From: Actinomycetes bacterium | GTDB taxonomy: Bacteria; Actinomycetota; Thermoleophilia; BMS3ABIN01 | Assembly (NCBI GenBank): GCA_021790115.1 | Contig: JAJYIM010000001.1 | Coordinates: 23,543-87,542 of the forward strand | Length of the DNA: 64,000 nucleotides | Direction of reading: 5' to 3' | Notes under the pieces: model-generated | Told to the model about the DNA's origin: nothing | What the model saw: only the letters and a program-made list of their open reading frames with translations | Database searches by the model: none | Shown: positions 2,222 to 43,597 of the stretch, piece by piece | How positions within the stretch are numbered: position 1 is the stretch's first letter | Layout: each line of letters starts with the position of its first letter | Translations under genes and position numbers: made by a program

Positions 2222-4276
2222 ATGAGGAAAACAAGCAAGCTGTTCCCGAAAAAGCCGCTGCTGCTCGCGGCAGCCGCCGCCGTGGCGGTGATCATCCTGG
2301 CTTTCGTCCCCGCGGTGGCAATGGCAACGTCCTACAGCCAGAGCAGCCAAGTAGCGGTAGTGCCGAGCACGACAAATATAGGTCCAGGCTATACGGGCCA
2401 ACTGCCAACGTCGGGCGGCGGTTTTAACGCTTTTACTTTCTCCAGTCTGCCTGAAGCCAATATTAGCGCCGCCAATTTGGCACCGTATGACACCGTTGTC
2501 CTTTACCAGGATTGCGATCTTGGCGCTAATTTGACGCCATCTCAAAAAAGCGACCTGAACAACTGGGTATCCGCCGGCCACAAGCTGATAATTTATGATT
2601 CTGATTCATGCAACCCGACAGATGGCACGACCCCGGACTGGAGCTGGCTGGCCTTCCCGTTTCAAACCAATAATCCGGGCCAGTTGGGTTCCCACAACGG
2701 CTCCCTGAGCGTGGTGGAAAACGATACTCTCGCCAGCGCCGACCCGCCCTCGGCTTACTATATTGACACGGGCAGCATAACAACCAACACCGACGCCGTC
2801 GGCGACGCGAATGTGATGGTAACCCATGACATGAACTGGTACGGAAATATGTCGGCGGTCAACGCAAACGGGGTGCACGGATGGGTGCATACCTACGCCA
2901 CCCTCGGCAGCGGCCTCGTCATTTACAACGGCCTGGACACAGACTTCATGGATACTGATCCGGGCCTGCAGAAAATCTGGCTGCAGGAGCTGCAGCAGCC
3001 CTGGAACCCGGACGGGCTGCCACACCTAAACTCGGCAGCCGCCAAGAATTACTACTGGACCTGGTACGATAACGTCGGCATGCGCAACTGGGTGCTGATG
3101 GCCAACCCGGCCGGGCGCCCCAACTTGAGCTTCAACCTTACTATTGCCGGCAAGCCATACGGCCTGTCGATGGCCGCGGGCAACGCTCCCGGTGTGGTTC
3201 AGGCGGGCAAGACACTGACAGCCATATATCCCGGCATCATTGGCGGCCCGGTGAAAGTGACATCGAAGACGGGGGACAGCGCCGTCGTCAGCCAGAGGAG
3301 CCTGATGGGCAATTCCTTCGAGGAGGTCCTGGGGACGGACGCCGACACACTCTCGAATCATTTCTTCTGGACCTGGTACGATCAGCAAAGCCCCGGCTTT
3401 ACCAACTGGGTGCTGGTCGCCAACCCATCCGCCACCGAGGCAGTGCATGTGGAGATCTCCATTGCCGGCAAACTGATTTCCCAAAACGATATTGCCCCCG
3501 GCCAGAGGTGGACGCCGACGTTCCCCGGCAAGATTGGCGGCCCGGTGGAAGTGAAGGCTTATCTAAAGGGCGGCACCTGGGCGGGAAATCCGCGTGACGT
3601 AATCGCTTCCCAGCGGGTGCTCTCCAACTTCGGCACGGCCTTTAACGAAGTTCCCGGAATTCCGTCCCGCGAGCTGAAGTCCGACTATCTCTGGACGTGG
3701 TACGACAACGCCTCTCCCGGCGCAACTGACTGGGTGCTGATCGCCAATGCCGGCTTCGATCACAGCGGCAATCCTCAAGGGACAGTGACCACCCATGTCA
3801 AGATAGGAAATACCGTCGTCGGGACGTATCACGTCGGCGCGGGTCAAAGGGTAACTCCCACATTCCCGGGCGTGATGGGCGGGCCTGTGGAAGTCTGGAC
3901 AGACTCTGGCGATGTCATTGCCTCGCAGCGCACGACCTGGGGGCCATCGTTTGAAGAGGTCCCCGGCTACGGCAAGGATGCGCTGGCCAGCGATTACAAC
4001 TGGACCTGGTACGACATGCAGAGCCCTGGCGCGGCAAACTGGATCCTGATTGCAAACCCGAATGGCTCACCCGTCACCTACACGATCAAGATAGGCGGGG
4101 TTGTCCCACCCGGGGGCACGGGCATCATCCCGGCTTATGGCCGGGTAACGCCCACTTTCCCCGGCAAGATGAACGGGCCGGTGGAGGTATCCTCCACGGG
4201 CGGCGTTGTCATGGCCTCCCAGCGGGTTACCTGGAACGGCTACTTCAACGAGGTGCTGGGGACAGTGCTGAACTAG
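2222..4276 (+). CDS. secreted repeat protein with 4-5 copies of a ~100-aa repeat (YxWTWYD...NWVLxANP...PTFPGxMGGPVEV...FNEV)
   Basis: 684-aa ORF with a GGGGAGGAG RBS 8 nt upstream. N-terminal signal peptide MRKTSKLFPKKPLLLAAAAAVAVIILAFVPAVAMA. Four clear tandem ~100-aa repeats, each starting [YF]xWTWYD and ending FNEV[LP]G. No named domain that I recognise. Confidence 0.7.
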   Translation: MRKTSKLFPKKPLLLAAAAAVAVIILAFVPAVAMATSYSQSSQVAVVPSTTNIGPGYTGQLPTSGGGFNAFTFSSLPEANISAANLAPYDTVVLYQDCDLGANLTPSQKSDLNNWVSAGHKLIIYDSDSCNPTDGTTPDWSWLAFPFQTNNPGQLGSHNGSLSVVENDTLASADPPSAYYIDTGSITTNTDAVGDANVMVTHDMNWYGNMSAVNANGVHGWVHTYATLGSGLVIYNGLDTDFMDTDPGLQKIWLQELQQPWNPDGLPHLNSAAAKNYYWTWYDNVGMRNWVLMANPAGRPNLSFNLTIAGKPYGLSMAAGNAPGVVQAGKTLTAIYPGIIGGPVKVTSKTGDSAVVSQRSLMGNSFEEVLGTDADTLSNHFFWTWYDQQSPGFTNWVLVANPSATEAVHVEISIAGKLISQNDIAPGQRWTPTFPGKIGGPVEVKAYLKGGTWAGNPRDVIASQRVLSNFGTAFNEVPGIPSRELKSDYLWTWYDNASPGATDWVLIANAGFDHSGNPQGTVTTHVKIGNTVVGTYHVGAGQRVTPTFPGVMGGPVEVWTDSGDVIASQRTTWGPSFEEVPGYGKDALASDYNWTWYDMQSPGAANWILIANPNGSPVTYTIKIGGVVPPGGTGIIPAYGRVTPTFPGKMNGPVEVSSTGGVVMASQRVTWNGYFNEVLGTVLN

Positions 4277-32940: not shown

Positions 32941-33768
32941 CTAATGTTCCTGGTGGATTGCTCCACCGATGTAAACCGCCGACAGAATGGCGAAAATGTA
33001 AGCCTGGATCAGGGCTACGAAAATCTCAAAGGCGCTGACCATGAGCACGCCGGCCTCCAGCGGCAATATCAGCACGGCGATGGCGTAGCTCTGGATCATC
33101 AGGATCATGGCGTAAAAAACAAGCAAAACCAGGTGCCCGGCCGCCAGGTTGGCAAAAAGCCGGACTGACAATGAAACCAGGCGGAATACCTCGCTGATTC
33201 CGTGCAGGAAAAAAAGCACCTGCTTCAGCACCGGCGGCGCCGTTGACGGCATCCAGCCCTTAAAGTAGCCGACGATCCCGTTGGCCCGCATGCCGGAAGC
33301 GTGCGTCGCCACAAAAGTAATCCCCGCCAGCGCTATGGTCACATTAATGTTGGCCGTCGCGGCGTAAGTCTTGAACTCAGGGATGTTATGAAAACCGGGC
33401 GCCAGGTTAAACGGCAGCGGGACGAGCCCGATGATATTACTGATCAGGATGAAAAGAAACAGGCTGGCAATGTACGGGAACCAGGCCGCCGCGGCGCCGC
33501 CGGGCATGACCGCGCCCACGAGCACGTCCCGCACATATTCATACAGCCCCTCGAATGCGGTCTGTTTACGGTTCGGGAGCACGCGGGCAGCCTTTGAGAT
33601 GCCGATACAGATCAGCGCCGTCAGCGCCGCCCCAATGAACAGGTAAAGGACCACTTTGTTGATTGACATATCGACCGGGCCGAGGTGAAACTCGAGGTGA
33701 TGGCCGCCGATATCAACCGGCTTCAGCGCATCGGTAAATTCATCAGCCGGATTAAGCTGCGCGCTCAC
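32941..33768 (-). CDS. atpB: F0F1 ATP synthase subunit a
   Basis: 275 aa, polytopic, with the conserved Arg region (...LSVRLFANLAAGHLVL...). Confidence 0.9.
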   Translation of the reverse strand: MSAQLNPADEFTDALKPVDIGGHHLEFHLGPVDMSINKVVLYLFIGAALTALICIGISKAARVLPNRKQTAFEGLYEYVRDVLVGAVMPGGAAAAWFPYIASLFLFILISNIIGLVPLPFNLAPGFHNIPEFKTYAATANINVTIALAGITFVATHASGMRANGIVGYFKGWMPSTAPPVLKQVLFFLHGISEVFRLVSLSVRLFANLAAGHLVLLVFYAMILMIQSYAIAVLILPLEAGVLMVSAFEIFVALIQAYIFAILSAVYIGGAIHQEH

Positions 33769-34138
33769 GCTTCACCTCCCGCTTAAAACCCGTCCGCCCC
33801 CTTAGGCCGACGAAAATCTCCAGCCCAAGAAACGCAGTATAAGCAACGAGGAAGCAAATGGCCGTGGACACGAAATATTGCGGCAGCGCCAGCGCCACCA
33901 GCAGCAGGCCCAGGCCAATCAGTCCAAAACGGAGAAGAAAGCTCAGGACGGCAACCCCTGCTGCGGCGCCGGCACTGACCCGGCCTATCAGGGGCATGAA
34001 CGGCAACGACAGGCCGTAATTGACAGCGAAGATTGCCGCAGCCAGCGCCCAGGGCGCAAACAGCGGCCGGACCACCAGCCCCAGCAGCAGGCCAACCGCA
34101 ATCACCGCCGTCATCATCGTTGCCAATTTTCCTACCAT
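33752..34138 (-). CDS. atpI: ATP synthase protein I-like small membrane protein
   Basis: 128 aa with 4 TM helices. Sits directly upstream of, and overlaps, atpB. Confidence 0.55.
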   Translation of the reverse strand: MVGKLATMMTAVIAVGLLLGLVVRPLFAPWALAAAIFAVNYGLSLPFMPLIGRVSAGAAAGVAVLSFLLRFGLIGLGLLLVALALPQYFVSTAICFLVAYTAFLGLEIFVGLRGRTGFKREVKRERAA

Positions 34139-34283
34139 ATATCAATGATCCTTTTTCATGGCTTTCAAACAGTGTAAATCATAACGCGGGGTTGACTTGC
34201 GCGCGGCCGGTATGGCAACTGCGGCGTTGGCCCCCCGGCGCTGGCTGCCGCCGGTAAAACAACCGGGCCGGGCCGGCGCGGCG

Positions 34284-34496
34284 TTAAAAAACTGTCTTGT
34301 AAATCCCGTAAAGGCCGGCGGCAAATCCGCCAAAGACACCCAGGATTAAAAAAAGCGGCGTGGTGCTCAAAAGATAGTCCAGCCCCAGTCCGCCAATGGC
34401 GCCTAACAGAACCCCTCCCAGCAGGTAGAATGCAATCCATTCCCAGCTGGCAGAGCTGGCCCGGCGACCATTTGGTTTCGCCTTTCTAAGAGGCAA
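34284..34496 (-). CDS. AtpZ/AtpI-family putative F0F1-ATPase-associated small membrane protein (70 aa)
   Basis: MPLRKAKPNGRR... then two TM helices. Sits at the head of the atp operon. Confidence 0.45.
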   Translation of the reverse strand: MPLRKAKPNGRRASSASWEWIAFYLLGGVLLGAIGGLGLDYLLSTTPLFLILGVFGGFAAGLYGIYKTVF

Positions 34497-34562
34497 ATAA
34501 AAAACCGCGTCAGTATACCATGACAGGTAAATCGCTACAAGAGTAACAATCGGAAAATAATA

Positions 34563-35630
34563 TCACCTCGGGCGGGGGCTGCGTCTAGTCCTGATTTTTA
34601 ATATTTCCAATAAGTAAACCAGATAGACACTCACGCCTATGGCCACGCCTGCTAATATCACCGTCACGAAACCGGGTGCGAACCGCATCGAAAGCGCCAG
34701 CGAGCTCATCAGCGTGCACCAGGCGTAGAGGATCAGAACCGCCTTGCGCTGCGTGAAGCCGATGTTGAAAAGCCGGTGGTGCAGGTGGCCCCGGTCCGGC
34801 TTAAAGATCGAGCGCTTGTTCTTGACGCGCCTGAGGATGGCGAACGAGAGGTCAAAAATGGGCACACCCAGGATCAGCAGCGGTATGATCAAGGTGACGG
34901 CGGCAATGCTCTTGAGCACGCCGTGCACCGTGACTGCCGCCAGGAGAAATCCAAGCAGCATCGAGCCCGAATCACCCATAAAGATTTTTGCCGGGAAAAA
35001 GTTATGCCGCAGAAACCCGAGCGTCGTGCCCGCCAGAATCGCGGCCAGGATGCCGGCTCCCGGCCTGCCCATGGAGATGGCGATAACGGCAAATGTGCCG
35101 GCGGCAATGCTGCAGACGCCGGCCGCCAGGCCGTCCATGCCGTCAATGAAGTTGACAATGTTGACCAGGGTGACCACCCAGATTAACGTCAGCAGGATTG
35201 CCAAAGATGAACCAAGGTTGATAAAGCCGACAAGAGGCAGCGTGATGTAATCGATGCGGATGCCGTAACCAACCAGGAAAGCCGCCGCCAGAAACTGCCC
35301 CGCAAATTTCACCATCGGGCCGGTCGGCTTGAAATCATCGACGGCGCCAAAGAGGGTAATGATGGACGCGCCCAGCAGCACGCCTTTCATTTGCGCGGTC
35401 AACTCCAAAAACCAGAGCGCCGGAATGATAAAGCCGAAGAATATTGCCAGCCCGCCCAGGCGGGGCACGGGGTCCTCATGGATCTTGCGGTAATCAGGCT
35501 CGTCCATGGCGCCGACGAAGCGGGCGATGGAGCCAACCGTGGGCGTAACGATAAAAACAATGGCGGCGGCGACCACGAACGCCATCAGGGCAATCCTGGT
35601 TCCTCCCAGGGGATTCTGGATAAAGTCCAT
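34563..35630 (-). CDS. glycosyltransferase family 4, UDP-GlcNAc:undecaprenyl-phosphate GlcNAc-1-phosphate transferase (WecA/TagO-like)
   Basis: MraY/WecA polyprenyl-phosphate transferase family. NIVNFIDGMDGLAAG (DDxxD-like) and multiple TM helices. 355 aa. Confidence 0.8.
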   Translation of the reverse strand: MDFIQNPLGGTRIALMAFVVAAAIVFIVTPTVGSIARFVGAMDEPDYRKIHEDPVPRLGGLAIFFGFIIPALWFLELTAQMKGVLLGASIITLFGAVDDFKPTGPMVKFAGQFLAAAFLVGYGIRIDYITLPLVGFINLGSSLAILLTLIWVVTLVNIVNFIDGMDGLAAGVCSIAAGTFAVIAISMGRPGAGILAAILAGTTLGFLRHNFFPAKIFMGDSGSMLLGFLLAAVTVHGVLKSIAAVTLIIPLLILGVPIFDLSFAILRRVKNKRSIFKPDRGHLHHRLFNIGFTQRKAVLILYAWCTLMSSLALSMRFAPGFVTVILAGVAIGVSVYLVYLLEILKIRTRRSPRPR

Positions 35631-36134
35631 CTAACCGCCCATTCGGTGCAGTTTGACGCCTGCCTCGGCAAAGAACGACGCCGCCAGCTCGTCGGGATAC
35701 CCCTCGTTAAAATAAACTTCCACGATGCCGGCATTGATAATCATCTTGGCGCACAGGGAGCAGGGCTGGTGCGTGCAATAAAGAGCGGCGCCCTCGATCT
35801 TGACGCCATGCAGGGCCGCCTGCGCGATGGCGTTCTGCTCCGCGTGCAGCGCCCGGCATAGCTCGTGCCTCTCTCCCGACGGGACGCCCAGCTCCTCCCT
35901 CAGGCAGCCGGCTTCGGTGCAATGGGTGATGCCGCGGGGGGCGCCGTTATAGCCGGTCGATAATATGCGCTTGTCCTTCACCAGCACGGCCCCCACCTGA
36001 CGCCGCAAGCAGGTAGACCGGGAGGCGACCTGCCCTGCTATCTGGGAAAAGTACTCGTCCCATGATGGACGCGCTAACCGGCGGGGAAGAGGGACAGGAG
36101 AAAGGGGTTCTTTTTTCACTTTCTTTGCGTCCAT
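35631..36134 (-). CDS. deoxycytidylate (dCMP) deaminase, ComEB-like
   Basis: [14 protein letters not shown]...PCSLCAKMI are the CMP/dCMP deaminase zinc-binding motifs H(A)E ... PCxxC. 167 aa. Confidence 0.8.
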
Positions 36135-36299
36135 TTGCCTCTTTGCCTCAGAGCCTGCTGAGACAGGCCCTTATGGACTTTAATGCCCTAGGTTACCCAC
36201 CCCGCCTGCCATTTGCAAGCCGCCCGGCGGCCTGGGCCCGGCTTTTCCCGCATTTTGCCGGCTTTTTCTTCTTCGGGCGCCGCCGGGCTAATCCTTTGT

Positions 36300-36480
36300 A
36301 ATCTTCCCGGGAGATGGCAGGCTTCCTTTACGCGCATGCCCAGTAGATGGCAGGCTTGGTAGATGGCAGGCTTTTAGCCTGCCTTTGGGAGACTTCCTTT
36401 ACGCACAACACGCCCTCATCTGCACAGGCTAAAAGCCTGTGCCTACCGTCGTTTGAAGCGGGCTAAAGCCTGTGCCTGTG
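36300..36480. repeat. complex intergenic repeat block: 3x GATGGCAGGCTT, 2x CTTCCTTTACGC, hairpins GGCAGGCT-TTTA-GCCTGCC and CACAGGCT-AAAA-GCCTGTG
   Basis: Seen directly. Contains the same 27-mer as 17231-17257. Lies between the dCMP deaminase start and the end of the repeat-protein gene. Confidence 0.6.
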
Positions 36481-36481
36481 C

Positions 36482-38680
36482 CTAGTTTAGCACCGTCCCC
36501 AGCACCTCATTAAAGTAGCCGTTGTAAAGGACGCGCTGGGAAGCAATAACGTTGCCGCTGGCGCTTACCTCGACCGGGCCGCCCATCTTGCCGGAGAAGG
36601 TGGGAGTTGCGTTCTTTCCCGGGGCGATTGTGTAGGTGCCTATGGCAGTGCTGCCCAGCTTGATAGTTGCGGTAACTGCAAACGGGTTCGGGTTGGCGAT
36701 AAGCACCCAGTTTTGCATGCCTGGGCTTTGCTGGTCATACCAGGTCCAGTTGTAATCTGAGGTTAGCGCTGAGTAGCCGCCGTCAGTGGAGGCCGCCAGG
36801 CCCGGCACCTCTTCAAAGGAGGGGCCGAAGATCGAGCGCTGGGTGGCGATCACCTTGGCGCCCCCGTCGGTCCAGACTTCCACCGGGCCGCCCATCACGC
36901 CCGGGAAGGTGGGCGTGACATGCTGGCCGGGGCCGATCCGGTAGCTGCCGCGGAGAGCGCCGGCAATCTTGATATGGGCTGTTACCGCGCTTGCATTTGG
37001 ATTGGCGACAAGCACCCAGTCGGTGGCGCCGGCAGAGGCGTTGTCGTACCAGGTCCAGAGGTAATGGTCGGAAAGCTCCGCCGCCGGGATGCCGGGCACC
37101 TCGTTAAAGGCGGAGCCGTAATTGGAGAGGACCCGCTGGGAGGCAAGCACGTCCCCGCCGCTGGCGATAACCTCAACCGGGCCGCCCATCTTGCCGGAGA
37201 AGGTGGGAGTCACTTTTGCTCCCGGGGCGATGGGGCCGCTCCAGACAGGGACGCCGGCAATCTTGACCATGGCCGTTACCGGGCCCTGGGGATTGCCGTT
37301 ATGATCCTGGCCGGGGTTGGCCACAAGCACCCAGTTGGTCATCCCCGGGCTTTGCTGGTCGTACCAGGTCCAGTAGAAATGGCTGGAGAGCCGGCCCGCA
37401 TCGGTGCCGGGCACCTCTTCCATGGAGCTTCCCCCCTTGGGCCAGAGGCTGCGCTGGCTGAGGATGCCGCCGCCGGGCGCCCAGGTGACGGCTTTTACCG
37501 GGCCGTTCATGACCCCCGGAAAGACGGGAGTGATGGAGCGCCCCGGAGCGACAACGCCATTGTTATAGCCGGCGAGGCTCATGGCCCTGCCGCCAATGGA
37601 AAGCTGGGAGGTAACCAGGCTGCCCGGGGCCGAAGCCGGATTGGCGATCAGCACCCAGTTGCTGCCGCCGACATCATCGTACCAGGTCCAGTAAGAAGTG
37701 TTCGTGGTGGCAAGAATGGTGCCGCCATCACCCGCCACCCAGCCATGGCTCTGGTCCACGAAGCTGACGCCTTCAAATTTGTCAGCTGAGCCGCTCGTCT
37801 GGGGGCTCCAGGTAGCGCCGCCGTTTGTGGTGGCAAGAATGGTGCCGCCGCCCGTGCCGCCGCCCATCGCCACCCCGCCCCCAACTGCCCAGCCGTGGTT
37901 TTGGTCAACGAAGCTGACGCCTACAAGCGTATTGGCCGTGCCACTGGTCTGGGGACTCCAGGTAGCGCCGCCGTTTGTGGTGGCAAGAATGGCGCCGTTC
38001 GTACCCACGGCCCAGCCGTGGTTTTGGTCTGTAAAGCTAACGTCAGCAAGCCAGTTTGTCGTGCCGCTTGCCTGGGAGGTCCAGTGGGCGCCGCCGTCGG
38101 TAGTCGCAAGAATGGTGCCTCCGTAGCCCACCGCCCAGCCGTGGTTTTGGTCGAGGAAGAAGACGCGGTAAAGATCATTGGTCGTGCCGCTCGTCTGGAG
38201 GCTCCACCCGGCGCCGCCGTTGTTAGTTACAAGAATGGTGCCGTTAGCACCCACTGCCCAGCCGTGGTTTTGGTCCACGAAGCTGACGCCGTAAAGCAAA
38301 TTGGTGGTGCCGGTTGCCGCAGAGCTCCACCCGGCGCCGCCGTTGTTAGTTACAAGAATGGTGCCGTTAGCACCCACTGCCCAGCCGTGGTTTTGGTTCA
38401 GGAAAAAGACGCGGTAAAGATCATTGGTCGTGCCACTCGTCTGGGGGCTCCAGGTAGCGCCGCCGTTTGTGGTGGCAAGAATGGTGCCGCCGGGCCCCAC
38501 CGCCCAGCCGTGGTTCTGATCCACGAAGCTGATAGAATAAAGATCGCTCGTGGTGCCACTGGTCTGGGGACTCCAGGTAGCCGCCATTGACATTGAAGGA
38601 AAAACTGCCAGCGCCAGAAATGCTGCCGCCATTGCCGGTAGTAAAAACAACATCCGCGGCGTAAAGACTCTCTTCATCAC
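36482..38680 (-). CDS. secreted protein: Ycf48/BNR-like beta-propeller (7 repeats) fused to 4 copies of the ~100-aa WTWYD repeat
   Basis: Signal peptide MMKRVFTPRMLFLLPAMAAAFLALAVFPSMSMA. Seven repeats of the form ATWSPQTSGTTxDLYxVxFxDQNHGWAVGxxGTILxTxNGG (PSII stability/assembly factor-like propeller), then YWTWYD...NWVLIANP...FEEVPG repeats. The C-terminus ends NGYFNEVLGTVLN, identical to the 2222 protein. Confidence 0.7.
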   Translation of the reverse strand: MMKRVFTPRMLFLLPAMAAAFLALAVFPSMSMAATWSPQTSGTTSDLYSISFVDQNHGWAVGPGGTILATTNGGATWSPQTSGTTNDLYRVFFLNQNHGWAVGANGTILVTNNGGAGWSSAATGTTNLLYGVSFVDQNHGWAVGANGTILVTNNGGAGWSLQTSGTTNDLYRVFFLDQNHGWAVGYGGTILATTDGGAHWTSQASGTTNWLADVSFTDQNHGWAVGTNGAILATTNGGATWSPQTSGTANTLVGVSFVDQNHGWAVGGGVAMGGGTGGGTILATTNGGATWSPQTSGSADKFEGVSFVDQSHGWVAGDGGTILATTNTSYWTWYDDVGGSNWVLIANPASAPGSLVTSQLSIGGRAMSLAGYNNGVVAPGRSITPVFPGVMNGPVKAVTWAPGGGILSQRSLWPKGGSSMEEVPGTDAGRLSSHFYWTWYDQQSPGMTNWVLVANPGQDHNGNPQGPVTAMVKIAGVPVWSGPIAPGAKVTPTFSGKMGGPVEVIASGGDVLASQRVLSNYGSAFNEVPGIPAAELSDHYLWTWYDNASAGATDWVLVANPNASAVTAHIKIAGALRGSYRIGPGQHVTPTFPGVMGGPVEVWTDGGAKVIATQRSIFGPSFEEVPGLAASTDGGYSALTSDYNWTWYDQQSPGMQNWVLIANPNPFAVTATIKLGSTAIGTYTIAPGKNATPTFSGKMGGPVEVSASGNVIASQRVLYNGYFNEVLGTVLN

Positions 38681-38857
38681 CTGCTCCTAAAGGTTTGGAT
38701 TGACTTGCCCTTGATCCCGCCACTGCCTTTAAACCACGGGGCAGCAAAACCGACATGGCAGCGGCATAACTTCCAGTCCACTAAAAGTAGCTGCGCCTGC
38801 CCTCCAAGTCAAGTTAGACTGGGGTTAAAGAATGTTGGCAAATATTGAGATTACCCT

Positions 38858-38899
38858 GCGGGGGGGAGATAATTTCTGCAGAAATTATCTCCCCCCCGC
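38858..38899. repeat. 42-nt perfect palindrome GCGGGGGGGAGATAATTTCTG|CAGAAATTATCTCCCCCCCGC
   Basis: Seen directly; a 21-bp perfect stem centred on CTGCAG. Lies 3' of the 38930..40648 gene and 5' of the 36482..38680 gene. Confidence 0.7.
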
Positions 38900-38929
38900 A
38901 CAATTTCCGAAATTCCCGAAACTACTGCT

Positions 38930-40648
38930 CTAGGGCTTGGCGGGGTAGTAGTAAGTGGCACCGTTGCTATCCTGGCAATGGGCGTAAACAGAAGTGTGGA
39001 AAGACTGCACGCTTTGCGGCACATAGTACTGTATCATAAAGGCGTCGCCACCGGACGGCGGCGTATCGATATTGCCGAGCGCTTTTGGCAGCGCAGTCAA
39101 GGCCGTTACGCCGTTAGTGGCGTCAACCCGGTCAATCGATGCCGACAGCGCCTCTTCCTGCCCCTTGTTCATGATCCTGAAATCAACCGACAGCTTACGG
39201 CTGGCGTAGTCAGCCGTGCTGGCCCAGTAAGCGTTTGTCTCAAGCAATTGCATGTCGGGCATCGGCGCCGCCAGTTGGCCCGTGGCAAAGCGGGGCAAAC
39301 CCACAAGCTCGTTGAAACTGGTGCTCATGTACAGCACCCTCTGGCTCGCCAGCAGCACGCCGTTCTGGCTCATGACGTTCACGGGGCCACTCATTACACC
39401 CGGGAACTGGGGCGTTACCCGGCCGCCGCCGCTAATTGCCGTTGCATAAACCGGGCTCGCGGCCGCACCCATGTATACGTTTACTGCCGCGCCGCCCGAT
39501 GAGGGGTCGGGATTGGAAATGAGCTGCCAGTCTTTCATGCCGGGGCTCTGCATGTCGTACCAGCCAAAGTCCATTTCCGTGTCCATGCCGCCCGGCGGCG
39601 TCCCCTGCAACTCTTCAAACGAGTTCTTGTACAACATCCGCTGGCTGACAATCAGTTTCCCGCCGGCGTTGCATCCGGAGGTGCAGACCACCCGCACCGG
39701 CCCGTCCATCAGGCCCGCATAAGTCGGAGTGGCAATCCGGTGCGGGCCAAGCGAGTATGTTCCCCGCGGATTGGGATTGGAACCGATATAGACGCTGGCC
39801 TGCACTGGCGTATTGTTGGGATTGGCAACCAGGACCCAGTTTCCGGCGCTGAAATCCGAGGTCATATCGTACCAGTCGAAATAATAAACGCTGTCCAGAT
39901 GGCTTTCTGGGAAACCCATCGCTTCATTGAAGCTGTTTTTGTAAAGAACGCGCTGGGAGACAAGCAGCTTTTGGCCGCCGGAGCTGACGACATGGACCGG
40001 CCCTCCCATCAGGCCCGGGAACTCGGGGGTCACGAACTGCCCCGGCGCGATATTAAAAGAGCGGCTGGGGACCGTGCTGCTGCCAATGTAAACATTGACT
40101 GCCGCAGCCTGGCTGTCCTCGTTGGCGATCAGGATCCAGTTGCCATTCATGCTGTCCTGAGTGGTAAAGTCGTACCAAGTGAAATAATAGGAGGAGTCGA
40201 GGTTGTCCTGCATGATGGCCGGGACCTCGTTGAAATAGCCATTGTGGAGAACCCGCTGGGTGACAACCAGCGCCTGGCCGCCGGTAGAAATTACTTTAAC
40301 GGGGCCGCCCATTGTGTTGGGCCAGCTGATAACCTGGCGCCCCTGGGCGCCCACGGTGAATGTCTCCCGCGGAGCCGCCTGGTTGCCAAAAAATACCTGC
40401 ACATTGGCGGAGCTGTTTTCCAGATTGCCGATAACGATCCAGTCGCCCTGCATTCCGTCCACCGGCGTAGAGTCATACCAGGTGAAGTAATAAGTCTTGG
40501 GGGCCGGCGTGATCTGCACCGCGCCGGCGCTGGCGGCGGCAAGAGCTACCAGCAAAACTGAAAAAACTGTTAATAACAATAAATTTAAAGTCAGCGTCCG
40601 GGCTCTAACAAGTTTCTTCAAGACAGATACCTCCGTTTTTTTACACAC
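38930..40648 (-). CDS. secreted protein with 4-5 copies of the YYFTWYD...NWVLVANP...FNEV repeat plus a unique C-terminal domain
   Basis: Signal/TM VRARTLTLNLLLLTVFSVLLVALAAASAGA. Repeats such as YYFTWYDSTPVDGMQGDWIVIGN...MGGPVKVIS...VVTQRVLHNGYFNEVPA. Third paralog of the 2222 and 36482 proteins. Confidence 0.7.
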   Translation of the reverse strand: MCKKTEVSVLKKLVRARTLTLNLLLLTVFSVLLVALAAASAGAVQITPAPKTYYFTWYDSTPVDGMQGDWIVIGNLENSSANVQVFFGNQAAPRETFTVGAQGRQVISWPNTMGGPVKVISTGGQALVVTQRVLHNGYFNEVPAIMQDNLDSSYYFTWYDFTTQDSMNGNWILIANEDSQAAAVNVYIGSSTVPSRSFNIAPGQFVTPEFPGLMGGPVHVVSSGGQKLLVSQRVLYKNSFNEAMGFPESHLDSVYYFDWYDMTSDFSAGNWVLVANPNNTPVQASVYIGSNPNPRGTYSLGPHRIATPTYAGLMDGPVRVVCTSGCNAGGKLIVSQRMLYKNSFEELQGTPPGGMDTEMDFGWYDMQSPGMKDWQLISNPDPSSGGAAVNVYMGAAASPVYATAISGGGRVTPQFPGVMSGPVNVMSQNGVLLASQRVLYMSTSFNELVGLPRFATGQLAAPMPDMQLLETNAYWASTADYASRKLSVDFRIMNKGQEEALSASIDRVDATNGVTALTALPKALGNIDTPPSGGDAFMIQYYVPQSVQSFHTSVYAHCQDSNGATYYYPAKP

Positions 40649-40926
40649 AGGAACTCTTTGCCAAATAGCCGCGCAATTGGCAATTCGCCTGTTTATTGCC
40701 TACCGGGAAAGTTCGAGAAGTTCAAAAACCACAGTTTTTCCGCTGCTCATTTATGTCGGTGCAAAGCCGGCCAGCGCAGACTCCCGCCACGGCGCCGCAA
40801 CACGAACTTCCCCCCCCTTACACCCCTGCCCCCTGTGACTCTGAACGTGTGTTTGCTAAGACTGTGCCTATTTTGTGCAAGTAAGTATACACGGCTCCTG
40901 GAAATAATACAAGACCGGTAATTAAG

Positions 40927-42210
40927 CTACAGGTGAGGGTAAAGCGGAAAAGCTGCCAGCAGCTCGTTGACGCGGCGCCGCAGCCGCTTTTTCTCGGCAG
41001 TGGTGACGCGCTGCCCAAGGGCGGCAAGGATGATCGCCGCCACTTCTTCCATCTCCGCCTCCCGGAAGCCGCGGGTGGTGACCGCCGGAGTGCCGATACG
41101 CACGCCGCTGGTGACAGTGGGCGGCAGCGGATCAAAGGGGACAGAGTTTTTATTGACTGTGATGCCTACTTCTTCGAGGCGGTTTTCAGCCTCGATGCCG
41201 GTAATGCCAATGTCGGTCAAATCCGCCAGCATCAGGTGATTATCAGTGCCGCCGGAGACAAGCTGGATGCCCCCCTCCTGGAGGCGGCCGGCGAGCACGG
41301 CGGCGTTGACAACCGTCTGCTTTTGTCTTTGCCGAAACTCTTCCGTGCCCGCAAGTTTAAAGCAGGCGGCCTTGGCGGCAATGATGTGCATCAGCGGACC
41401 CCCCTGCAGGCCGGGGAAAACCGCCTTGTCAACATTCCTGGCAAATTTCTGCTTGCACAAGATGACGCCAGAACGGGGCCCGGCCAGAGTTTTGTGTGTG
41501 GTCGTGGTAACGTAATCGCTGACGGCCACTGGATCGGGATGCAGCCCCGCCGCTACCAGGCCGGCGATATGAGCCATGTCCACCATCAGCCTGGCGCCGA
41601 CGCTGCGGGCAATCCCGGCGAAGCGGGCAAAATCGATACTGCGGGGATAGGCGCTGGCGCCGGCCACAATTAACTGCGGCTGGCGCTCGCGGGCAATCTC
41701 TTCGATATCGTCGTAGTCAAGCCGGCCGGTCTCCTTGTCCAGCCCGTAGCTGTGCACGTGATAAAAACGTCCGGAGAAGTTTACCTTTAACCCGTGAGTG
41801 AGATGGCCGCCATGATCCAGTTTCATCGCCAGGATGGCGTCCCCCATGGCCAGCTCAGCAAAGTAAACCGCCTGATTGGCTGTAGAGCCGCTATGTGGCT
41901 GGACGTTGACATGCTCGGCGCCAAACAGCTGCTGGCAACGATCGATGGCAAGAGTTTCTACTTCGTCAACAAACTCGCAGCCGCCGTAGTAGCGCGCGCC
42001 TGGATAACCTTCCGCATACTTGTTAGTCAGGACTGAAGCCGCCGCTTCCAGCACGGCGCGGCTGGTGAAATTCTCAGAGGCAATCAACTCAATGGTGCCG
42101 CGCTGGCGCGCGAGCTCTTTCTTAAGCAGTCCGGCAAGCTCAGGATCGGCTTCTTTTAGCCGTGACCTGAATTCTGGCTGTGTTTTTGCTTCTACCTTGG
42201 AGCGGGCCAA
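40927..42210 (-). CDS. glyA: serine hydroxymethyltransferase GlyA
   Basis: ...[34 protein letters not shown]...[10 protein letters not shown] (the PLP lysine). Probable TTG start at ~42210 ([29 protein letters not shown]), overlapping the rpiB stop by ~19 nt. The track ORF extends further upstream through non-homologous sequence. Confidence 0.88.
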
Positions 42211-42647
42211 TGCTTCTCCAAATCTGCAATCTGGCTCAGCCGGCGGGCATGGCGGCCGCCTTCGAAATCTGTTTCCAGCCAGGCGTCCAAAATGGCAAAT
42301 GCGGTCTTGTCTTCCAGCAAGCGCTGACCAAGGCAGAGGACGTTGGCATCGTTGTGCCTGCGGCTCATTACAGCGTGCTCCACGCTGCAGGGCCCTACCG
42401 CCCTGACCCCAGCGATCTTGTTGGCCGTGATGCACATTCCCAGGCCGGTGCCGCATACCAAAATACCGCGGTCAACGGAACCGGCGGCGACAGCACCGGC
42501 AACCCGCACAGCATACTCCGGGTAATCAACGCTTTCGCCGGAATCAGTGCCCATATCAATGACCTCGTGGCCGGCCCTCTCCAGCCGCCCGATTGTCATT
42601 TGCTTCAGCTCAAAACCGGCATGGTCGGCAGCCAGCGCCAGCTTCAT
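42192..42647 (-). CDS. rpiB: ribose 5-phosphate isomerase B
   Basis: [16 protein letters not shown]...[16 protein letters not shown] from the internal ATG at 42647 (codon 46 of the track ORF), with GGAGGA at -8. 151 aa. Confidence 0.85.
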
Positions 42648-42875
42648 CAAGCTTCCTCCTTGGGTTTTTCCTCCCGGCCGGAGCCGTCCACGGCCCCGGC
42701 AAGGGCGGGAATGTCTTTCTGAGCGGGACGTTCGACTTTCAGCCGCCGGGGATGAAACATTGCCAGTATATATTATTTTCATGCTGGAGGACTCCCGCTT
42801 CAGCCGGCGGCAGGCGCAGGCCTCCAGGCCTGTGCAGACGCGGATCTCCCCAATTTAGAGTCAGCGGCACAGCCC

Positions 42876-42966
42876 TAAGAATCTATCGCAAAAGGCTGTT
42901 CGCAGCGAGGCCTTTGCAGCCGGCCGCAGCAGAATATGCCTTGAGATAGATTCTAAACGACGCTTC
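42876..42966. repeat. TIR hairpin element (family 2), copy B (longest)
   Basis: TAAGAATCTATCGCAAAAGGCTGTTCGCAGCGAGGCCTTTGCAGCCGGCCGCAGCAGAATATGCCTTGAGATAGATTCTAAAC. The terminal inverted repeats are GAATCTATC...GATAGATTC. Confidence 0.65.
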
Positions 42967-43597
42967 CGATCAACGCCTCGATATCCCCGCGCACTACCGC
43001 GCCCTCTCTCAGAACCCGGGCCGGCTCCCCCTCCGCCAGCGGCCGCAGGTCCACAACTGTGGAGGAAGCACAACCATCGATCGGCCCACTGTCCAGCACG
43101 TATTCACAAGCCTGCTTGAGCTCCTCCGGAATCTCGTTGATGAAGCAGGGGTCAGCGCCGCCGGCCAGGTTGGCGCTGGTCAGCGCCAGCGGCGTGGGCA
43201 ACCGCTGAAATACCGCCGCCTCAGGCAAGGGCAGCACCCGCACGCCAATGCCCCCCTCGAAGGCGGCCGCGGCCCCCTGTTTCCCCGCCGCTGCGGCCGC
43301 CGGCAGGATCAGCGTCACCGCTCCCGGCAGCAGTTCCTCAACAGCATTTAGCACCGCTGCCGGCAGCCGGGTGTATGCATGCACCAGCCGGATGACATCA
43401 TCAAACACCAGCGCCACCGGTTTGCCCGGCGCCCTGCCTTTGGCGGCAAACAGCCGCTGAAGCGCCTCCGGCTCCGGCTTGCAGGCGACGCCATAGACCG
43501 TATCGGCAGGCAGCGCAATCAGCCGGCCGCGCTCCAGCGCCGCGGCCGCGTCCGCCCAGTCGGAGCGGGTCATGGATTTAAGAAGTAGAAGTTTCAC
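42953..43597 (-). CDS. tsaC: L-threonylcarbamoyladenylate synthase, TsaC/YrdC family
   Basis: ...ALPADTVYGVACKPEPEALQRLFAAKGRAPGKPVALVFDD... is the Sua5/YciO/YrdC/YwlC fold. 214 aa, with no Sua5 C-terminal domain. Confidence 0.78.
   Translation of the reverse strand: MKLLLLKSMTRSDWADAAAALERGRLIALPADTVYGVACKPEPEALQRLFAAKGRAPGKPVALVFDDVIRLVHAYTRLPAAVLNAVEELLPGAVTLILPAAAAAGKQGAAAAFEGGIGVRVLPLPEAAVFQRLPTPLALTSANLAGGADPCFINEIPEELKQACEYVLDSGPIDGCASSTVVDLRPLAEGEPARVLREGAVVRGDIEALIGSVV

Follow-up and report, generated by a model that had tools for sequence, protein, structure and literature searches.

A four-repeat beta-sandwich module in secreted proteins of Thermoleophilia-like actinobacteria as a candidate cell-wall glycan-binding unit

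INTRODUCTION

In Firmicutes, fused domains are held at the envelope by SLH or CWB2 repeats, the former being helical and the latter having a toprim-like alpha/beta fold. In both systems (PF00395 for SLH; PF04122, the Cwp family of C. difficile, for CWB2), a small fixed number of tandem repeats makes up one pseudo-symmetric unit, which is placed at one end of varied secreted proteins (wall hydrolases, proteases and proteins with adhesin-like domains), and there are many paralogs per genome. The proteins described here share these features.

A second point of comparison is the ASRAH superfamily, represented in this work by ASRT (Anabaena sensory rhodopsin transducer; PDB 2II7), TM1070 of T. maritima (PDB 1NC7) and Pfam PF07100/DUF1362. 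The ASRAH fold is a sandwich of eight strands in which strand 1 opens with a conserved W and strand 2 ends with a conserved N; free-standing proteins of this type assemble into homotetramers, and a ligand cleft lies where the subunits meet (PMC2739507). Outside the cell, ASRAH domains come in twos (dyads) or in fours (tetrads), the tetrads being fused to N-acetylmuramoyl-L-alanine amidase in the Chloroflexi Roseiflexus, Chloroflexus and Herpetosiphon. For these extracellular versions, sugars or peptidoglycan were the predicted ligands (De Souza, Iyer & Aravind 2009, PMC2739507).

RESULTS

Two adjoining genes, A and B, were analyzed in a 64,000-nucleotide stretch of DNA from an actinobacterial MAG (the window), together with gene C, a third paralog located 32 kb from the pair (Table 1). 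Both open reading frames of the pair were confirmed, on the minus strand. Signal peptides were present in all three proteins; that of gene A (MMKRVFTPRMLFLLPAMAAAFLALAVFPSMSMA/ATW) was read from the sequence, and an AGGAG ribosome-binding site was located 5' of the GTG/ATG start of this gene. The palindrome between B and A begins 31 nt past the gene B stop codon and is likely to be a terminator hairpin that keeps the two transcripts apart.

TABLE 1 Positions of genes A, B and C and of their parts in the window
Feature	Position	Strand	Basis
Gene C, 684 aa: signal peptide, ~240-aa unannotated N-domain, four repeats (3038..4273)	2222..4276	+	Repeat alignments
Gene A, 732 aa: propeller of seven blades between a signal peptide and the four-repeat module	36482..38680	-	ORF list
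WTWYD module of gene A (four repeats, aa 325-732), with the NGYFNEVLGTVLN end	36485..37708	-	Repeat alignments, AlphaFold2, Foldseek
Propeller of gene A (aa 34-325), with seven blades of 41 aa and of the BNR/PSII_BNR type	37706..38581	-	Pfam PF14870, NCBIfam score, HGW blades, DNA period
Perfect 42-nt palindrome between B and A	38858..38899	-	Read directly: GCGGGGGGGAGATAATTTCTG / CAGAAATTATCTCCCCCCCGC
Gene B, 572 aa: four divergent repeats between a signal peptide or membrane anchor and the C-terminal domain	38930..40648	-	ORF list
Gene B C-terminal domain, aa 456-572, 117 aa, function unknown	38933..39283	-	Pfam search empty
Gene B four-repeat module, aa 49-455	39284..40504	-	Repeat alignments, repeat HMM

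The sequence-only reading had described gene A as seven GW-type repeats followed by four WTWYD repeats, and both parts were recovered. The first part consists of seven 41-aa HGW blades (aa 41 to 325), the seventh being closed by an N-terminal ATWSPQT strand, and is visible in the DNA as a 123-bp period (5.7 copies, 76% identity); the WTWYD repeats follow at aa 325 to 732. A domain search matched the propeller to Pfam PSII_BNR (PF14870; E=2.6e-37, 129 bits, cut-off of 27), as had been anticipated. The photosystem II assembly factor Ycf48/HCF136 is a seven-bladed propeller of the same Pfam family. However, orthology to Ycf48 was rejected at a score of 133 bits, far under the cut-off of 326 of the NCBIfam equivalog (NF010237), and gene A also differs in its actinobacterial host and in having unusually uniform 41-aa blades fused to the four-repeat module. 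The propeller is probably a ligand-binding domain and not a photosystem factor. The same joining of propeller and four-repeat module was detected elsewhere in the family (P0006 and P0052; 5 of 44 representatives), and orthologues of gene A were present in synteny in L001, L002 and L009.

Gene B had been credited with five repeats and a unique C-terminal domain, neither of which was borne out. Four [FY]xWYD motifs were present, and the repeat HMM gave four domains (aa 49 to 455) that were 26 to 48% identical to the repeats of A and C. The C-terminal domain had no match at E<=10 in a Pfam search but is shared by orthologues: P0004 and P0106 have a Cys-containing end like that of gene B (QCQDS.G..YYYP), and the L002 orthologue, which occupies the same position, has a YYYP end. 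Identities to the L002 orthologues were 70% for A and 79% for B, compared to 91 to 95% for glyA, the dCMP deaminase gene, wecA and atpB, and hence A and B diverge faster than their neighbors, in keeping with the rapid evolution that had been proposed. Gene C had no Pfam or NCBIfam match. Its protein agrees with the database protein P0005 in all of the first 35 and last 16 residues; P0005 is encoded on ENA contig k141_1216499, where the neighboring genes are also the same.

The repeats greatly exceed what chance would produce: exactly four copies were detected by the repeat HMM in 113 of the 123 proteins tested (A, B and C together with 120 hits from the database). Among 120 diverse representatives, there were four copies in 112, eight in 7 and seven in 1, and copy number is thus quantised at 4 or 8. 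Repeats at the same position of A and C were 47% identical for A1-C1 and 66 to 68% identical for A2-C2, A3-C3 and A4-C4, exceeding the match of each repeat to other positions of the other paralog (38 to 57%), and each of the four positions has its own family-wide consensus. These results indicated that the unit is the tetrad. A search of a 1.84-billion-protein library with the repeat HMM yielded 1,383 clusters at 50% identity, mostly from MAGs of Thermoleophilia/Actinomycetota; the four-repeat block is widespread in uncultured Thermoleophilia-like actinobacteria. At least 12 family loci were present in one MAG and about 9 in others, compared to three in the window. The tandem arrangement recurred in other genomes, with three adjoining paralogs in L013 and two each in L014, L015 and L002. 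A signal peptide was detected by a crude pattern test in 134 of 218 members starting with M. The block was mostly C-terminal, and in 18 of the 120 representatives it was N-terminal or internal, and whole.

AlphaFold2 modeling of the gene A tetrad (411 aa) gave a pLDDT of 95.6 and a pTM of 0.92, and the tetrad is predicted to fold as one rigid body. The single repeat was modeled as a beta-sandwich of ~100 aa with eight strands (pLDDT of 97.5). The sequence-only reading had allowed that the repeats might map to a known domain; no sequence match was found in Pfam, NCBIfam or PDB, and the nearest fold was that of TM1070. The top three Foldseek matches in PDB were all chains of 1NC7 (probability of 1.00, TM of 0.62/0.57), at an E-value of 6.5e-3 for a beta-sandwich likeness that can be convergent, and these were followed by Ena fibres, the FimH and LecB lectins and carbohydrate-binding modules, with TM values of <=0.47. 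Each repeat has a conserved set of residues, consisting of W-Y-D in strand 1, an invariant W and N in strand 2, Q-R in strand 7 and E in strand 8; an invariant W9 follows T8, and the invariant N is N25, which closes strand 2.

Like ASRAH domains, the repeat is an eight-stranded sandwich that carries a W where strand 1 starts and an N where strand 2 ends. The strand 2 signatures differ (SHEshChhN in ASRT, x[ND]W[VI]L[VI][AS]N in the repeats), the ASRT profile PF07100 had no Pfam match to the repeats, and hhalign comparison of the repeat with two ASRT alignments gave a probability of 1.9 to 2.8% (E of 0.016 to 0.027), a profile-profile similarity that is not significant. We infer that the repeat is homologous to ASRAH domains. 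The homotetramer formed by free ASRAH domains would correspond to the rigid four-repeat body of the predicted tetrad, and extracellular ASRAH domains resemble the present family in being secreted and in forming tetrads, some family members also being fused to N-acetylmuramoyl-L-alanine amidase. Compared by their published description (PMC2739507), the Chloroflexi tetrads differ from this family, which comes mainly from Thermoleophilia-like MAGs and has dozens of fused domain types, not amidases alone. DUF5719 (PF18986), an actinobacterial domain of unknown function, may provide a weak sequence bridge: it had a borderline match to the strand 1-2 region of P0022 (26.7 bits, cut-off of 26.2) and scored 20.9 bits with P0009, while 3 of 69 single repeats matched (E>=0.013). 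About 40 residues match and no more, and A, B and C had no match.

The domain shuffling previously suggested was evident from the many different Pfam domain types fused to the same block. These include the peptidoglycan enzymes SLT, M23, glucosaminidase, Amidase_2 and SpoIID as well as CAP, M4, S8 and M14 proteases, cytochrome c, PD40, BNR propellers, Ig-like domains and, most commonly, a NosD/pectate-lyase-like beta-helix. This repertoire is that of a wall-targeting module. No conserved partner gene adjoined family members, as expected of a self-sufficient binding module, and in IMG/VR there was no relative and no phage endolysin carrying the module. One member, P0123, has its own PEP-CTERM signal, indicating that the tetrad is not the sole localization device in every host.

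DISCUSSION

The reading that we favor, with confidence that is about evenly balanced, is that the tetrad is an ASRAH-like pseudo-tetramer that binds cell-wall glycan and keeps its cargo on the envelope. The secreted proteins A, B and C have the fixed tetrad as their common part, and its four repeats would pack against each other as ASRT/TM1070-like (ASRAH-type) domains, making a pseudo-tetramer within one chain. The polar and aromatic residues conserved in each repeat could then form up to four glycan-binding sites for a cell-wall polymer of repeating units, which would be peptidoglycan or a secondary wall glycopolymer, and the tetrad would hold or target the fused domain at the envelope of these single-membrane actinobacteria. 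The cargo would be the seven-bladed BNR/PSII_BNR propeller in gene A and a small C-terminal domain of unknown function in gene B.

It is unlikely, although conceivable, that the sugars bound are not those of the cell's own wall. The tetrad would then work as a carbohydrate-binding module on polysaccharides that are secreted or come from the environment, bringing enzymes to substrates without anchoring them, or a small-sugar sensor like intracellular ASRT. Lectins and carbohydrate-binding modules are the next fold neighbors after TM1070, the ASRAH literature predicts general sugar binding (PMC2739507), the commonest partner could act on polysaccharides and the module can be N-terminal or internal. 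However, no glycoside-hydrolase catalytic domain was present among the partners in the Pfam lists returned, carbohydrate-binding modules are rarely a strictly fixed four-unit block, and retention on the cell's own wall better suits partners that include many peptidoglycan hydrolases, proteases and cytochrome c.

The very rigid predicted body, the many paralogs per genome with a different head on each, the existence of eight-repeat proteins and weak fold and Pfam echoes of the self-assembling Ena endospore-appendage subunits would suit a protein-protein scaffold, such as an S-layer-like lattice or an oligomerization platform, that shows fused domains without binding glycan. We regard this as rather improbable, as W, Y, D, N, Q, R and E are conserved in all four repeats, which suits ligand binding over a variable lattice interface; in addition, the nearest fold has a ligand cleft, and no dominant stand-alone "S-layer" member was seen.

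The end of gene A is indeed identical to that of gene C, encoded at position 2222 (NGYFNEVLGTVLN), and this shared 13-aa C-terminus had been put forward as a possible sorting or anchoring signal; as such it would be a separate tag with a dedicated enzyme to read it. Conservation of the tail extends through the family, distant homologues included (after the last FNEV, it is of a six-residue LGTVLx type in 102 of 197 proteins and of a three-residue WGQ type in 39), and in most members the end of the module coincides exactly with the C-terminus. Nevertheless, every repeat, internal ones included, has an [FY][NE]EVxG end with which the peptide aligns, and the peptide is the closing strand of repeat 4 together with its tail, with YFNEVL modeled as a beta-strand (pLDDT of ~95). 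Neither an LPXTG nor a PEP motif is present in it, and a hydrophobic segment and a basic tail are both lacking. Genes resembling those for sortase or exosortase were not among the conserved neighbors, and the block is away from the C-terminus in the 18 representatives noted above. Such a signal is thus very doubtful, and anchoring, if there is any, would be done by the whole four-repeat block and not by the tail. Of the surface-protein family that had been envisaged, a secreted paralogous family is supported, association with the surface is probable and the sorting tag is not upheld.

Recent segmental duplication within the genome, with nothing functional in the shared end and repeats, was suggested by the presence of three paralogs within 64 kb, two of them adjoining, but was refuted and has a negligible probability, since the A and C modules are just 57% identical in protein and patchily identical in DNA (77 to 88%, with four synonymous differences among the final 39 coding nucleotides), B and A are also found in synteny in another MAG and the family is so large.

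For the cell-wall reading of the tetrad, we propose SLH and CWB2 as a functional analogy. The fold and sequence are unrelated, the tetrad being a beta-sandwich with four repeats instead of three, and A, B and C had no Pfam match to SLH or CWB2. We infer that the tetrad binds glycan and is retained at the wall, and the unannotated block most likely sticks many different enzymes to cell-wall sugars.

Organization of genes A, B and C

The two adjacent open reading frames that the sequence-only reading had proposed were both real and lay on the minus strand; a third paralog, gene C, was located 32 kb away (see the table). All three contain a block of four WTWYD repeats. Each gene A repeat began with xYxWTWYD and ended with [FY][NE]EVxG in the repeat alignment, and the motifs of gene B were, in order, YYFTWYD, YYFTWYD, YYFDWYD and MDFGWYD. 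The earlier count of four repeats in gene A was upheld, while the count of five in gene B was corrected to four.

Features of the three paralogs and their flanking DNA
Feature	Position	Strand	Description
Gene C	2222..4276	plus	684 aa; third paralog; ~240-aa unannotated N-domain, then four repeats; C terminus NGYFNEVLGTVLN as in A
Gene C N-domain	2327..3037		aa 36-272, ~240 aa
16-bp unit GTAGATGGCAGGCTTG	36343..36373		1.9 exact copies, within the 347 nt that separate gene A from the dCMP deaminase gene
Gene A	36482..38680	minus	732 aa; signal peptide, seven-bladed propeller, four ~100-aa repeats
Propeller DNA tandem repeat	37884..38581		123-bp period, 5.7 copies, 76% matches
Perfect 42-nt palindrome, GCGGGGGGGAGATAATTTCTG/CAGAAATTATCTCCCCCCCGC	38858..38899		31 nt past the gene B stop codon
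Gene B C-terminal domain	38933..39283		aa 456-572, 117 aa; unannotated; end is HCQDSNGATYYYPAKP
Gene B	38930..40648	minus	572 aa; signal or anchor sequence, four divergent repeats, 117-aa C-terminal domain

Gene A started with a signal peptide of typical form (MMKRVF...PSMSMA/ATW) and had an AGGAG ribosome-binding site of its own. The palindrome 3' of gene B is likely a terminator hairpin; it lacks a T-run and was therefore missed by a consensus terminator scan. Genes A and B are probably transcribed separately. An Rfam scan detected no riboswitch upstream of either gene, the sole matches being two tRNAs elsewhere in the window. B-type proteins had no N-terminal cargo domain, and the C-terminal domain of gene B had no Pfam or NCBIfam match; a Cys-containing end resembling that of gene B was present in two B-type orthologues from the databases (P0004 and P0106), and the orthologue at L002, a compared locus in another MAG, had a YYYP end. 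A "class F sortase" match on the signal-peptide region of gene B was dismissed as noise. The N-domain of gene C matched nothing in Pfam, NCBIfam or PDB sequences and was partly common to at least one other family protein, the stretch NDLNNWVSAGHKLIIYDSDSCN being found in P0008.

Residues 41 to 325 of gene A comprised seven very regular 41-aa blades (SGTTxDLYxVxFxDQNHGWAVGxxGTILxTxNGGxxW), the last of which was closed by an N-terminal ATWSPQT strand. The PSII_BNR type assigned to this propeller from the sequence was borne out by the Pfam search (E = 2.6e-37; 129 bits, cut-off 27). The score against the NCBIfam Ycf48 equivalog NF010237 was 133 bits, below the cut-off of 326, indicating a Ycf48-type propeller and not a Ycf48 orthologue; none of the ORFs read, covering part of the window, stood out as a photosystem II gene. 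The blades of gene A were so alike that they were visible as a 123-bp period in the DNA, which suggests blade amplification or homogenisation. Seven HGW blades were also present in the L002 orthologue, and five were found by the same motif scan in the more irregular L001 orthologue. The combination of propeller and four-repeat block recurred in P0006 and P0052 and in 5 of 44 representatives.

The gene order glyA - B - A - dCMP deaminase gene - wecA - atpI - atpB was kept in Thermoleophilia MAG B_ACT_02 (L002), and an A-type gene was kept upstream of the dCMP deaminase gene, wecA and atp in L001 and in L009, a Gaiellales MAG. Identity to L002 was 70% for A and 79% for B, compared to 91 to 95% for glyA, the dCMP deaminase gene, wecA and atpB. 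These results indicated that the A/B pair is stable in position and architecture and evolves faster than its housekeeping neighbours, in agreement with the rapid evolution proposed earlier; such a difference is usual among surface proteins. Neighbour clustering of 39 loci detected orthologous synteny and beta-helix paralogs only, with no conserved non-family neighbour, for instance a gene for a sortase, a glycosyltransferase or secretion. The A/B site (32941..43597) lies near wecA, encoding the GlcNAc-1-P transferase that starts synthesis of the wall-polymer linkage unit, a closeness that may be a coincidence.

A large family joined to diverse extracytoplasmic domains

A profile of the 12 window repeats was used to search 1.84 billion representative proteins, and 1,383 clusters were recovered at E ≤ 1e-3, 936 at E ≤ 1e-10 and 592 at E ≤ 1e-30. 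With a repeat HMM, exactly four copies were detected in 113 of 123 proteins, the exceptions being mostly fragments. Among 120 of the listed representatives, 112 had four copies, 7 had eight and 1 had seven; the eight-repeat proteins consisted of two tetrads, in some cases with a spacer between them. The block was C-terminal in 102 of these 120, N-terminal in 11 and internal in 7. Scans of A, B, C and single repeats against Pfam and NCBIfam gave no model for the repeat; mapping to a known domain, which the sequence-only reading had named as evidence against it, was not observed. Abundant proteins of this family are consequently annotated by their cargo domain only or as hypothetical. A weak PLipase_C_C match was set aside as noise. 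Known wall-binding repeats (SLH, CWB2, choline-binding, LysM, SH3b and LGFP) likewise gave no Pfam match to A, B, C or single repeats at E ≤ 10.

Nearly all named matches were MAGs labelled Thermoleophilia, Actinomycetota/Actinomycetes or Gaiellales. The window also matched ENA metagenome contig k141_1216499, on which a protein with the N- and C-terminal sequence of gene C had the same neighbours. A pattern-limited scan of species-representative genomes counted at least 12 family loci in a single MAG and about 9 in each of two more, and two or three family genes stood in tandem at several loci. No relative was present among IMG/VR viral contigs, and hence no phage endolysin with the module. 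A search of the literature on WTWYD, on DUF5719 and on wall binding in Thermoleophilia brought up no relevant work.

The domains fused to the tetrad were very diverse and all of extracytoplasmic type, which fits the domain-shuffled surface-protein family that had been proposed. NosD/beta-helix was the commonest partner. Peptidoglycan enzymes (SLT and SpoIID lytic transglycosylases, M23, glucosaminidase and Amidase_2) and proteases (M4, S8, M14 and kumamolisin) were found, together with CAP, FG-GAP, PD40, BNR/Sortilin and PSII_BNR propellers, cytochrome c and many Ig-like domains. The cluster of P0121, a homologue with two tetrads, included a Thermoleophilia amidase/SpoIID protein of 1,770 aa. 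In P0010 and P0015 the tetrad was joined to cytochrome c domains (PF13442/PF00034), a hint that these anaerobic actinobacterial MAGs may encode extracellular redox proteins tethered to the wall.

Predicted structure and comparison with the ASRAH superfamily

An AlphaFold2 model of the gene A module (411 aa, 97-sequence alignment) was all-beta, with a mean pLDDT of 95.6 and a pTM of 0.92; a pTM of this level over four domains indicated fixed packing rather than beads on a string. A Foldseek search with the entire tetrad yielded generic macroglobulin-domain arrays only (e.g., complement C3, TM about 0.15), confirming tandem beta-sandwiches in the model and being otherwise uninformative. A single repeat (69-sequence alignment) was modelled with eight strands and a pLDDT of 97.5, and its top three Foldseek matches in the PDB were chains of 1NC7, the TM1070 protein of T. 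maritima (probability 1.00, TM 0.62/0.57, E = 6.5e-3).

TM1070 and the sensory rhodopsin transducer of Anabaena (ASRT; PDB 2II7) belong to the ASRAH superfamily defined by De Souza, Iyer and Aravind in 2009 (PMC2739507), whose domain folds as a sandwich of eight strands in which strand 1 opens with a conserved Trp preceded by a polar residue and strand 2 is closed by a near-invariant Asn (PMC2739507). The strand count and the 1NC7 match of the modelled WTWYD repeat are consistent with this fold. Both residues were present as well: W9 (after T8) and N25 did not vary among the 12 repeats of the window and were conserved to 90% or more in a set of 69 repeats, and N25 directly followed strand 2 (residues 18 to 24) in the single-repeat model. 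The free ASRAH protein is a homotetramer with a ligand cleft bounded by strand 2 and the dimer interface, and extracellular ASRAH families invariably form dyads or tetrads (PMC2739507). The four-repeat count and the rigid packing predicted for the module would agree with this architecture. From the register of residue positions, we infer that the family-invariant W20 lies on the strand-2 face that bears the ligand-contacting His and Cys in ASRT.

Similarity was not detected at the sequence level. The ASRT/DUF1362 model PF07100 gave no match at E ≤ 10, and PDB sequence searches with module and repeat profiles gave no meaningful match and did not recover 1NC7 or 2II7. Alignment of the repeat profile to two ASRT alignments by hhalign covered the expected region (strands 2 to 5, Asn to Asn) with nonsignificant probabilities of 1.9% and 2.8%; the ASRT query was 100% identical to PDB 2II7, and the TM1070 sequence was retrieved by that same PDB search. 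A forced global alignment of the repeat to ASRT was meaningless. DUF5719 (PF18986) matched the strand 1-2 part of repeat 3 in P0022 (26.7 bits; gathering threshold 26.2) and, below threshold, in P0009 (20.9 bits). This borderline match is the only sequence bridge toward ASRAH and could lead to actinomycete ASRAH-dyad lipoproteins. Overall, the likeness to ASRAH held for fold and architecture but not for sequence.

ASRAH tetrads are joined to N-acetylmuramoyl-L-alanine amidase in Roseiflexus, Chloroflexus and Herpetosiphon, and these amidase-fused tetrads were predicted to bind sugars or peptidoglycan elements (PMC2739507); binding of sugars or small molecules in the strand-2 cleft is a prediction even for the founding ASRAH members (PMC2739507). 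The WTWYD family, large and so far without annotation, is best regarded as a branch of the extracellular ASRAH tetrads or a relative of them, the Chloroflexi tetrads being compared by description only, and its cargo repertoire is far wider than that described for ASRAH tetrads.

Proposed role of the tetrad and alternative explanations

The role with the best support is one in which the tetrad would be an ASRAH-like single-chain pseudo-tetramer that binds a repeating envelope glycan and thereby keeps or targets varied secreted domains at the cell wall. Gene A would present a BNR-type propeller, and gene B would present its small C-terminal domain. By analogy, the tetrad would be a functional equivalent of SLH and CWB2 modules, which differ in fold. 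The full mechanism, from pseudo-tetramer through glycan binding to wall retention of the cargo, is in our judgement about evenly balanced between right and wrong.

Below 1NC7, the Foldseek matches of the single repeat included Ena3A, the lectins FimH, FmlH and LecB, PirA and several carbohydrate-binding modules, all with a TM of 0.47 or less, and no glycoside-hydrolase catalytic domain was present in the Pfam lists returned for tetrad partners. A carbohydrate-binding module for polysaccharides other than those of the cell's own wall is an unlikely alternative; a protein-protein or lattice module, for which the fixed packing of the four domains may also be considered, is slightly less probable again.

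The C terminus shared by A and C had been put forward as a possible sorting or anchoring signal. In an alignment of all 12 window repeats, NGYFNEVLGTVLN at the end of A and C aligned with NGYFNEVPAIMQDN in B1, SAFNEVPGIPAAE in A2 and others, and the shared "tag" is the end of repeat 4. YFNEVL was modelled as a beta-strand, and the tail that follows was ordered (pLDDT about 95). The C termini of A and C (...FNEVLGTVLN) lacked a hydrophobic or basic tail as well as any LPXTG or PEP motif, and features of LPXTG/sortase, PEP-CTERM and T9SS CTD signals were absent from them. Among 240 homologues, 197 ended within 10 residues of the last FNEV motif, with a six-residue LGTVLx-type tail in 102 of the 197 and a three-residue WGQ-type tail in 39, and a family-wide pattern scan found one weak sortase-like case only (P0029). 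A short C-terminal peptide acting as a sorting signal is thus improbable. As a separate observation, P0123 (JGI metagenome, 1,194 aa) had eight repeats followed by a distinct textbook PEP-CTERM signal, PEPTTVLLFGIGLFGIFTMLLRKKRR, indicating that the tetrad is also present in an organism that apparently uses exosortase sorting; this host probably does not belong to the Thermoleophilia-type MAGs that make up most of the named matches.

Recent segmental duplication, which the sequence-only reading had named as an outcome that would count against it, was refuted, and a duplication without function retains practically no credibility, since the A and C modules had 57% protein identity, their DNA was 77 to 88% identical in patches only, and all four differences in the last 39 coding nt were synonymous. 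Repeats at the same position were 47% identical for A1-C1 and 66 to 68% identical for A2-C2, A3-C3 and A4-C4, each value exceeding the matches of that repeat to other positions in the other paralog (38 to 57%), and each repeat position had its own consensus across 97 aligned proteins. The four-repeat block is an ancient, fixed unit.

Implications for the family and its hosts

With a model of the tetrad, over 1,000 protein clusters would gain an annotation, and the surface proteome would be marked out in an actinobacterial class about which little is known. If the modelled pseudo-tetramer is correct, the family would be a clean case of the passage from a homotetramer to a single-chain pseudo-tetramer. 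If wall binding is true, the tetrad would add a new module for anchoring that could serve in surface display and in predicting where proteins localise, and would give a concrete, testable function to the ASRT/ASRAH fold, the biology of which has not been clear since 2009. More tentatively, and with somewhat less than an even chance, the tetrad may be a so far unrecognised, lineage-wide system by which uncultured Thermoleophilia-type actinobacteria display proteins on the cell surface; it would copy the ASRT homotetramer in a single chain with four sugar sites, dock on a specific wall glycopolymer and organise the exoproteome. Such a system would extend to dozens of loci in each genome and, over the family as a whole, to hundreds of different cargo architectures, including wall hydrolases, proteases, cytochromes and propellers, and would provide the first physiological role for the ASRAH fold beyond the disputed rhodopsin-transducer story.
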